Source of the DNA: Escherichia coli
Lineage (GTDB): Bacteria > Pseudomonadota > Gammaproteobacteria > Enterobacterales > Enterobacteriaceae
Assembly: GCF_003334335.1 (NCBI RefSeq)
Contig: NZ_QOWQ01000064.1
Length of the DNA stretch: 10,732 nt
Direction: 5' to 3' (one strand)
Shown: piece after piece, positions 1,072 to 1,411 of the stretch
How the letters are laid out: each line of letters begins with the position of its first letter
Numbering within the stretch: the first letter of the stretch is position 1
The notes under the pieces: generated by a model
What the model was told of the DNA's origin: nothing
Seen by the model: only the letters and a program-made list of their open reading frames with translations
Databases searched by the model: none
Program-made: the position numbers and the translations under genes

Positions 1072-1411
1072 ATTGATAACAGAGGGCGTTGCAGCGGGGT
1101 TGTCACTTAAGCGTATGGTCAACCTGACAACTCGGTGTCCTCAACGGGGAAGGAATAACCCCGCCATACTTACCGCCGCGCCATTTCGCGGGTTGCCACA
1201 ACCGGAAGCGCACGGTCGACGAAAATTTAACGACAGGCTATCTATGAACCAGCTACCTCGCCGTGCGCTTTCGCGTTATGGTCTGACTTTTCAGGGAAAT
1301 ATCCTTTCAGTAAACTGTCAGTGCCGGATGCTCACCCGTGTCCGGCACATGCACTCCACCTCACCCGTGGAGAACTCCTTAATTACCAACCTTAGCTTCG
1401 TTGGTTAGCTA

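Follow-up and report, generated by a model that had tools for sequence, protein, structure and literature searches.

Cell division, metabolism, and EHEC virulence are under the control of DicF, a classic sRNA whose release from the operon that encodes it has so far been described as cleavage positions only. What the sequence between ydfC and dicF contributes to this release is the question raised by a 10,732-nt stretch of Escherichia coli DNA (NCBI RefSeq assembly GCF_003334335.1, contig NZ_QOWQ01000064.1), which we call the window; positions are those of the window unless one of the compared loci (L numbers) is named. An earlier sequence-only reading of the window had counted about 340 nt between the ydfC stop and DicF and had proposed that the processing determinants of DicF lie there. 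The gap measures 340 nt (1072-1411, minus strand). We conclude that it is probably the non-coding leader of the DicF precursor within a PL-type ydfABC-dicF-dicB transcript, composed of RNA modules that are separable from one another (Table 1).

Results

The gap lies in a Qin-type dicBF operon and is a mosaic of RNA modules

On the minus strand, the order is ydfA, ydfB, ydfC, DicF, dicB (656-844), and ydfD, which is the order around the corresponding gap of the E. coli K-12 Qin prophage. The proteins are K-12-like as well, and a PL-type promoter-like site lies beside a cI-like gene, so that the locus belongs with the Qin-type dicBF operons. At its upstream edge, the gap is bounded by the TAA stop codon of the ydfC-like gene (1414-1412); at its downstream edge, the Rfam DicF model RF00039 matches over its full length from 1070 to 1019 (72.5 bits, E = 8e-15, against a gathering score of 48), and the 5' end of the K-12-type 53-nt DicF falls at 1071. 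The gap is 97.2% identical to the K-12 Qin ydfC-dicF gap, and 3335 of 5426 complete E. coli genomes contain at least 80% of it. The locus differs from K-12 in its repressor: a short DicA repressor is found there, whereas here the PL-like promoter (2153-2125, minus strand) adjoins the gene for a 212-aa cI-like repressor (2238-2876, minus strand), and with this difference the control of the present operon copy may differ from the published K-12 circuit. Elsewhere in the window, the sok antitoxin RNA model (Rfam RF01794) matches at 7470-7645 on the plus strand with 120.5 bits, a sequence match that implies a hok/sok-type toxin-antitoxin locus in the same prophage.

The sequence-only reading had suggested secondary-structure prediction of the minus-strand transcript as a check, and the RNA from 1420 to 1010 indeed folded better than 100 of 100 shuffles (z = -3.0). 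When the gap was compared by BLAST with phages and E. coli genomes, parts of it were found apart from one another elsewhere. On this comparison, the gap is a mosaic of separately exchangeable RNA modules, which follow one another in the order twin hairpins (module A), third hairpin (hp3), RNase III stem (stem M), and domain B.

Table 1. Coordinates of the features in and around the ydfC-dicF gap
Feature	Position	Strand	Description and basis
ydfC-like gene	1412..1630	-	72 aa; ORF list; phrog_1744, E = 3.8e-39; ydfC in RefSeq homologues
hp0 hairpin	1383..1407	-	UAACCAAC / GUUGGUAA; directly after the ydfC stop; minimum-free-energy fold
Module A, twin hairpins	1321..1372	-	Fold of 1305-1415, z = -3.1
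hp3 hairpin	1283..1321	-	CUGAC...GUCAG; sequence variants, insertion junctions, folds
Module M, long imperfect stem	1196..1281	-	5' arm 1281-1258, 3' arm 1219-1196; inferred RNase III substrate
Domain B	1088..1202	-	Closed five-helix pseudoknotted RNA, 115 nt; covariance model R1
U-rich linker GCCCUCUGUUAUCAAU	1072..1087	-	16 nt, single-stranded; ends at the DicF 5' end
DicF sRNA	1019..1071	-	Seed, U-rich stretch, and intrinsic terminator hairpin; Rfam RF00039
Long-range stem 1018-991 / 880-852	852..1018	-	Directly 3' of the DicF terminator, outside the gap
111-codon antisense ORF	1073..1408	+	Judged spurious

The gap shows little sign of coding for protein

We considered whether the gap encodes a protein, either from the 111-codon frame on the plus strand or from a small frame on the minus strand, since ORFs do exist and small genes are called here in some phage annotations. 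Of 66 full-length copies, only 24 keep the plus-strand frame open, while indels reduce it to 60-95 open codons in the remaining 42, and its product had no PHROG match. The minus strand of the gap holds two ORFs only, and neither is conserved. One is a 36-codon GTG ORF (1213-1103) which, although phrog_8854 matches 23 residues of its product, is frameshifted to another C terminus in about half of the 66 homologous copies. The other is a 23-codon TTG ORF lying over the twin hairpins, in which all substitutions are non-synonymous and whose start and end vary in other phages. The substitution pattern in the gap tracks base-pairing and not codons. On these grounds we rejected all three ORFs as coding, and we regard a protein-coding gap as extremely improbable. 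The earlier reading, which had found no convincing minus-strand ORF and had thought the 111-aa frame likely spurious, was right on both counts.

The cleavage positions published for K-12 fall on a long stem and next to a U-rich linker

Processing of DicF in K-12 has been described by Ragunathan et al. (2023, bioRxiv 10.1101/2023.04.14.536235), who confirmed the processing results of Faubladier (1990). A 190-nt DicF species owes its 5' end to RNase III, which cuts between positions 813 and 814; this species is lost in an rnc deletion strain and builds up when RNase E is inactivated, and the 53-nt DicF requires RNase E, which makes its 5' end. The same study detected RT-PCR products reaching from ydfA to dicF, found no evidence for an additional promoter inside the operon, and detected no transcript past DicF on Northern blots, while the 3' end of the 53-nt DicF arises by termination (bioRxiv 10.1101/2023.04.14.536235; reviews). 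Reviews further describe DicF as derived from the ydfC 3' UTR and give a 72-nt form made by RNase III, and genome-wide RNase III mapping papers mention DicF in passing. The published K-12 species are thus the 190-nt (RNase III), 53-nt (RNase E), and 72-nt (downstream RNase III) forms, and the K-12 literature that we searched gives their cleavage positions only, with no mention of a stem, a pseudoknotted domain, or a modular make-up.

We placed the published RNase III positions on the window in two ways. A length of 190 nt, measured back from the DicF 3' end at 1019, leads to 1208. Alternatively, the -10 box TAATCT of the K-12 dicBp promoter implies a start site near position 1405 of L004, and 813/814 counted from there corresponds to about 1204/1203 in the window, a conversion which assumes that the published numbering begins at this inferred start site. 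Both positions fall in the 3' arm of stem M, at about 1203-1208. RNase III cuts double-stranded helices of about two turns (~20 bp), and stem M has that length, with 21 consensus pairs at 1281-1258 / 1219-1196, three of which vary in a compensatory way (GG/CC to AG/CU and to UA/UA; RNAalifold, 10 variants); its single-sequence fold has a z of -3.4. We infer from the K-12 results that stem M is the RNase III substrate here. The linker (1087-1072) was unpaired in all folds, and in other cassettes its position is taken by another linker or seed; given the RNase E dependence reported for K-12, it is the putative entry site of RNase E. The processing account of the sequence-only reading, in which RNase III and RNase E free DicF and the spacer holds structured processing sites, is therefore supported: this pathway is already in the literature for K-12, whose gap is nearly the same, and both RNase III positions map to stem M. 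The modularity of the gap and a pseudoknotted domain that takes up a third of it, described below, were absent from that reading.

The long-range stem directly behind the DicF terminator may belong to the same pathway. The region 835-1075 folds with a z of -4.3, and the 3' arm of the stem ends at the dicB ribosome-binding site. The 3' end of the 72-nt DicF would fall at about 1000, inside the 5' arm, and the published RNase III cut that yields the 72-nt form probably falls in this stem, which would reshape the 5' UTR of dicB as well.

Among the compared loci, we observed deletion variants (L056 4485-4614 and L098 6116-6244) that keep DicF but have lost both stem M and the outer-helix 5' strand of domain B, apparently by recombination between two CGCGAAA repeats.

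Domain B is a conserved pseudoknotted RNA domain

By its coordinates, domain B is the 5' body of the 190-nt DicF precursor. Its helices emerged from a comparison of P1, a phage-plasmid, the cdtI phage, and numerous prophages with the window. An outer helix (1202-1195 / 1095-1088; GUUGUGGC / GCUGCAAC) closes the domain; inside it lie H0 (1191-1176), H1 (1169-1164 / 1118-1113), H2 (1163-1145, a variable hairpin), and H3 (1133-1125 / 1105-1097), which is interleaved with H1 and makes the fold a pseudoknot. Across 48 distinct sequences, 94% of the alignment cells were paired, compared with 33-55% when the partners were slid, and 14 of 33 pairs had changed on both sides (shuffle mean 5.0, with 14 reached by 0 of 500 shuffles). 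The pseudoknot helix takes part in this, with 6 of its 9 pairs covarying. An alignment made with MAFFT only, comprising 22 variants, gave a similar picture (94.6% of cells pair; 8 pairs change on both sides versus a shuffle mean of 3.0). The structure proposed for domain B is thus shown by covariation among these sequences. The long unpaired stretches GGCGGUAAG, CACCG, and CAGGUUGAC are invariant. The covariance model built from the domain, R1, has a single match in the window (1080-1208, 151 bits), while Rfam 15 has nothing that overlaps 1080-1411 at gathering thresholds or at E <= 10. We conclude that B is a conserved pseudoknotted domain, undescribed in Rfam and in the literature that we searched.

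Domain B and stem M share sequence. The last 7 pairs of stem M are made by GGUUGUGG, and because this stretch doubles as the 5' strand of the outer helix of B, only one of the two pairings can form at a time. This was the sole competing pairing that we found; reading through the sequences of 12 cassette families, we saw no conserved alternative pairing between B and the variable terminators that follow it.

Domain B precedes many different sRNA cassettes

B recurs in lambdoid prophages, in the ban-operon leader of P1 and P7, and across the Enterobacterales. R1 matched K-12, E. albertii, Citrobacter, Trabulsiella, Serratia symbiotica, and Izhakiella, and it scored 86 bits in P1, 81 bits in P7, and 78 bits in a phage-plasmid; in a scan of genome contigs, B was confined to Enterobacterales, apart from 5 chance hits. 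A hairpin followed by a T-run was detected 33-139 nt downstream of B in 192 of 200 copies, and terminators were visible on inspection in the other 8. A structured domain directly ahead of an intrinsic terminator is the arrangement of transcriptional riboswitches and attenuators, and B has it. The sequences between B and the end of the terminator fall into at least 12 unrelated families of seed-plus-terminator cassettes, of which DicF is one.

Cassettes other than DicF sit between the same flanks in L003 (4205-4262), L127 (3110-3175), and L001 (2596-2645), and the DicF slot is occupied by others in L013, L124, L178, L198, L202, and further loci; from these sequences, the place of DicF looks like a swappable sRNA slot. 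In L225, L137, L247, L250, and L256, the terminator hairpin behind B has a large loop holding a Shine-Dalgarno sequence and an ATG, so that a tiny ORF starts inside the terminator, an arrangement which might couple translation to termination. We also noted stretches containing GATGATG-CTGA near B in the cdtI, P1, and phage-plasmid leaders (L127 2860-2900, L001 2705-2740, L130 2670-2700).

The position of B within operons varies between phages. In the cdtI, 2H10, and Stx2c phages, B and its sRNA come before all PL genes, about 290 nt downstream of the PL promoter, and in the PL leader of the cdtI phage a long, unrelated stem lies directly against the 5' strand of B; the order of stem, then B, then sRNA thus recurs with a different sequence. 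In P1 and P7, B and its sRNA start about 35 nt after Pban, ahead of tRNAs and ban, and there is no M-type stem, so RNase III is no universal partner of B. The P1 ban-operon leader is labelled "dicF-like region" in GenBank (AF234172). Like the present locus, this region in P1 and P7 contains domain B followed by a seed region and a terminator, but its seed and its terminator (GCCCAUC...GGGUGGGC) are its own and unlike those of DicF, and the Rfam DicF model gave no match in the P1 region. The "DicF-like" similarity of the P1 region, as judged by these comparisons, lies in B and not in DicF. We did not find a ban-leader RNA in the literature that we searched. The Pas sRNAs and svsR, which we also considered, are located in other phage regions and are irrelevant to the gap.

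The P1 and P7 leaders bear on whether a promoter of DicF or of the 190-nt RNA lies within the gap, the finding that the sequence-only reading had named as evidence against its account. Because the P1/P7 unit follows so closely on a real promoter, a stand-alone unit of B and sRNA does exist elsewhere. In the window, however, a consensus scan gave no promoter-like site on the minus strand of 1072-1411, the sole such site in 600-2400 being the PL-type one at 2153-2125. The sequence directly upstream of B is the 3' arm of a stem and is not promoter-like, and in K-12 the 5' end of the 190-nt RNA is lost when RNase III is missing, and the K-12 study likewise found no further promoter. We consider an internal promoter very unlikely.

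Copies without the interior of domain B, and the question of read-through

In 8 loci, a mini-hairpin (GGUUGUG-AAUA-ACAAC) replaces the interior of B, and stem M and an sRNA cassette are retained. These loci (L003, with the mini-hairpin at 4188-4203; L024, L068, L072, L111, L113, L026, L117) show a precise removal of the B interior. Since they keep stem M and the cassette, the B interior is dispensable for a processable precursor, and this comparison hints at a further function of B. An N-like protein is encoded in 5 of 5 B-less copies with enough upstream sequence, whereas no N-like match was found in the 109 copies in which a pattern search detected B (0/109) or in 5 further copies that inspection showed to carry B (0/5); this anticorrelation is a hint only, as the B-less copies are essentially one lineage and two N proteins served as queries.

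In the main rival account, the chief task of B would lie in transcription and not in processing: B would act in cis on RNA polymerase, either in the manner of put or as a regulated attenuator, and control read-through of the strong sRNA terminator just behind it, so that dicB and ydfD, the P1 tRNAs and ban, and the PL genes of the cdtI and Stx2c phages are expressed without an N protein. Several of the observations above would fit: an intrinsic terminator follows essentially every copy of B, B sits at the leader sites typical of nut and put both after PL and after Pban, and a cassette can be had without the B interior. In addition, co-oriented operon genes lie beyond the terminator in 4 of 4 contexts examined, the N gene is absent from its usual place in the cdtI, 2H10, Stx2c, and P1/P7 contexts, N-like proteins and B show the anticorrelation given above, and the invariant unpaired stretches of B fit a binding surface for a protein or another macromolecule. 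The K-12 data speak against this explanation. Northern blots there show little read-through and the 53-nt 3' end is made by termination; with no transcript detected past DicF, read-through is not efficient in K-12. That we saw no conserved pairing of B with the variable terminators on reading the sequences is a further argument against it, as is the essentially single lineage behind the N/B anticorrelation.

We compared B with put of phage HK022, an RNA that suppresses termination independently of other factors by way of the zinc-binding domain of the beta-prime subunit. Both are structured phage RNAs of about 70-120 nt in an early-operon leader upstream of terminators, and HK022, like the phages that carry B, has no N antiterminator at that place. 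Their architectures differ: put consists of two long stems in a V shape with a short triplex, whereas B is a closed five-helix pseudoknot. R1 had no match at E <= 1 in the HK022 immunity region (L005, L006), with which B has only a 9-mer, GCGCGGCGG, in common, and no relevant Rfam match linked the gap to put. We rejected membership of the put family for both module A and B, as neither resembles HK022 putL or putR. HK022 also has both putL and putR, whereas the window has a single copy of B and none on the PR side. We judge control of read-through by B to be unlikely, while giving it considerably more weight than a coding gap or an internal promoter.

Module A and hp3 may have come from another gene neighborhood

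In module A, hp1 (1372-1354) reads CUCCAC-GGGUGAG-GUGGAG and hp2 (1348-1321) reads GUGCCGGA-CACGGGUGAGCA-UCCGGCAC, and the loops of both carry ACGGGUGAG. The module is nearly unchanged in 96 viral-contig loci; the variation is concentrated in the linker between the hairpins, and no compensatory changes were found in the stems among these loci, so that the hairpins have no covariation support. Module A is also present in PL operons lacking B or DicF (L002, L003), and exchange junctions lie exactly at its ends. The hp0 hairpin is specific to the ydfC-type left flank, and other sequence takes its place where the neighbor is gene X. In some phages, an insert of ~560 nt with an opposite-strand phrog_1244 gene stands in place of hp3.

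This insert, between module A and stem M, was seen in L023, L027, L013, and L178 and in phages Evi and PPompW. The phrog_1244 gene encodes Cys-X2-Cys motifs and has its own TATAAT box between two CCCCAACAAC repeats, which look like operators.

Gene X, unannotated, encodes 67 aa on the opposite strand (phrog_2605, E = 8e-44; L003 ~3772-3972; L260-L296). In 37 of 37 loci encoding X, its ribosome-binding site is preceded at a distance of 20-25 nt by hp3 and module A, which differ there by one or two bases at most, and in some loci X is only 47-54% identical while module A stays ~95% identical. Module A and hp3 could accordingly be an upstream element of gene X (a 5' UTR or operator), or a recombination boundary, and a relic in the present locus. 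The junctions at the ends of module A would suit this origin, as would the stems without compensatory changes, and the two loops form a direct DNA repeat, CTCACCCGTG, with a spacing of 29 bp. On the other hand, a consensus scan found no plus-strand promoter-like site in the module A region, and the window has no gene X, yet module A is kept in thousands of E. coli genomes, a retention that shared recent ancestry could explain. The concentration of variation in the inter-hairpin linker, moreover, fits conservation of the hairpins themselves. We regard an origin with gene X or at a recombination boundary as a real possibility, somewhat short of an even one. A pairing of the module A loops with the DicF loop, found by eye, amounts to only 5 bp (CACGG/CCGUG), and we set it aside as too weak.

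Discussion

The RNase III and RNase E processing of DicF was already published; what is new here is the anatomy of the gap. Read together with the K-12 results, this anatomy suggests how the precursor would be processed. RNase III would cut stem M at about 1203-1208, as it does in K-12 and as the 97% identity leads us to expect here, and would thereby separate the ydfABC message from an RNA of ~190 nt made up of domain B, the 16-nt U-rich linker, and DicF with its terminator hairpin. RNase E would then cut at the end of the linker, as in K-12, and free the 53-nt DicF. Until the RNase III cut, GGUUGUGG would be held in stem M, and after it this strand would be free to close the outer helix of B. 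With B closed, nothing but the linker would be single-stranded between the two stable structures, and the RNase E cut would thereby be fixed in place. B may be a generic 5' scaffold for a family of phage sRNAs, given that at least 12 unrelated seed-plus-terminator cassettes follow it; we infer both this role and the switch between stem M and the outer helix. The copies that keep stem M and a cassette without the B interior speak against the scaffold role. More tentatively, module A, hp0, and hp3 might protect the 3' end of the released ydfABC message, and the role of module A in the present transcript may be nil.

Such a pathway has parallels in known systems. RNase III stems flank rRNA, and adjacent stem-loops select RNase E sites in sRNAs derived from 3' UTRs. 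As with rRNA, the released RNA is flanked on both sides by long helices, here 1281-1196 and 1018-991 / 880-852, but rRNA stems pair the 5' and 3' flanks with each other, whereas the upstream stem here is a local hairpin. As in 3'-UTR-derived sRNAs, the RNase E cut would fall in a short U-rich single strand between stable structures. Unlike either system, a large conserved domain lies here between the RNase III cut and the mature sRNA.

A broader proposal joins the two roles considered for B: it would be an undescribed class of pseudoknotted, cis-acting leader RNA in the early operons of lambdoid phages, P1-like phages, and phage-plasmids that balances termination, which yields an Hfq-type sRNA, against read-through into the early genes, replacing N and nut functionally as put does in HK022, and at the same time a universal 5' carrier of swappable cassettes. 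We hold this to be about as doubtful as control of read-through by itself. The reading that we prefer for the gap is that of a non-coding, modular leader of the DicF precursor.

With the cleavage positions placed on a covarying stem and a defined linker, the release of DicF becomes open to tests with point mutants. Most E. coli genomes carry domain B, as do P1-family plasmid prophages and the Stx2c and cdt toxin phages. If B only guides processing, it would be a reusable scaffold for the evolution of phage sRNAs. Control of read-through would instead make B the second antitermination system, after put, to rely on RNA alone, and would bear on early-gene expression in lambdoid phages that lack N, toxin-converting phages included.
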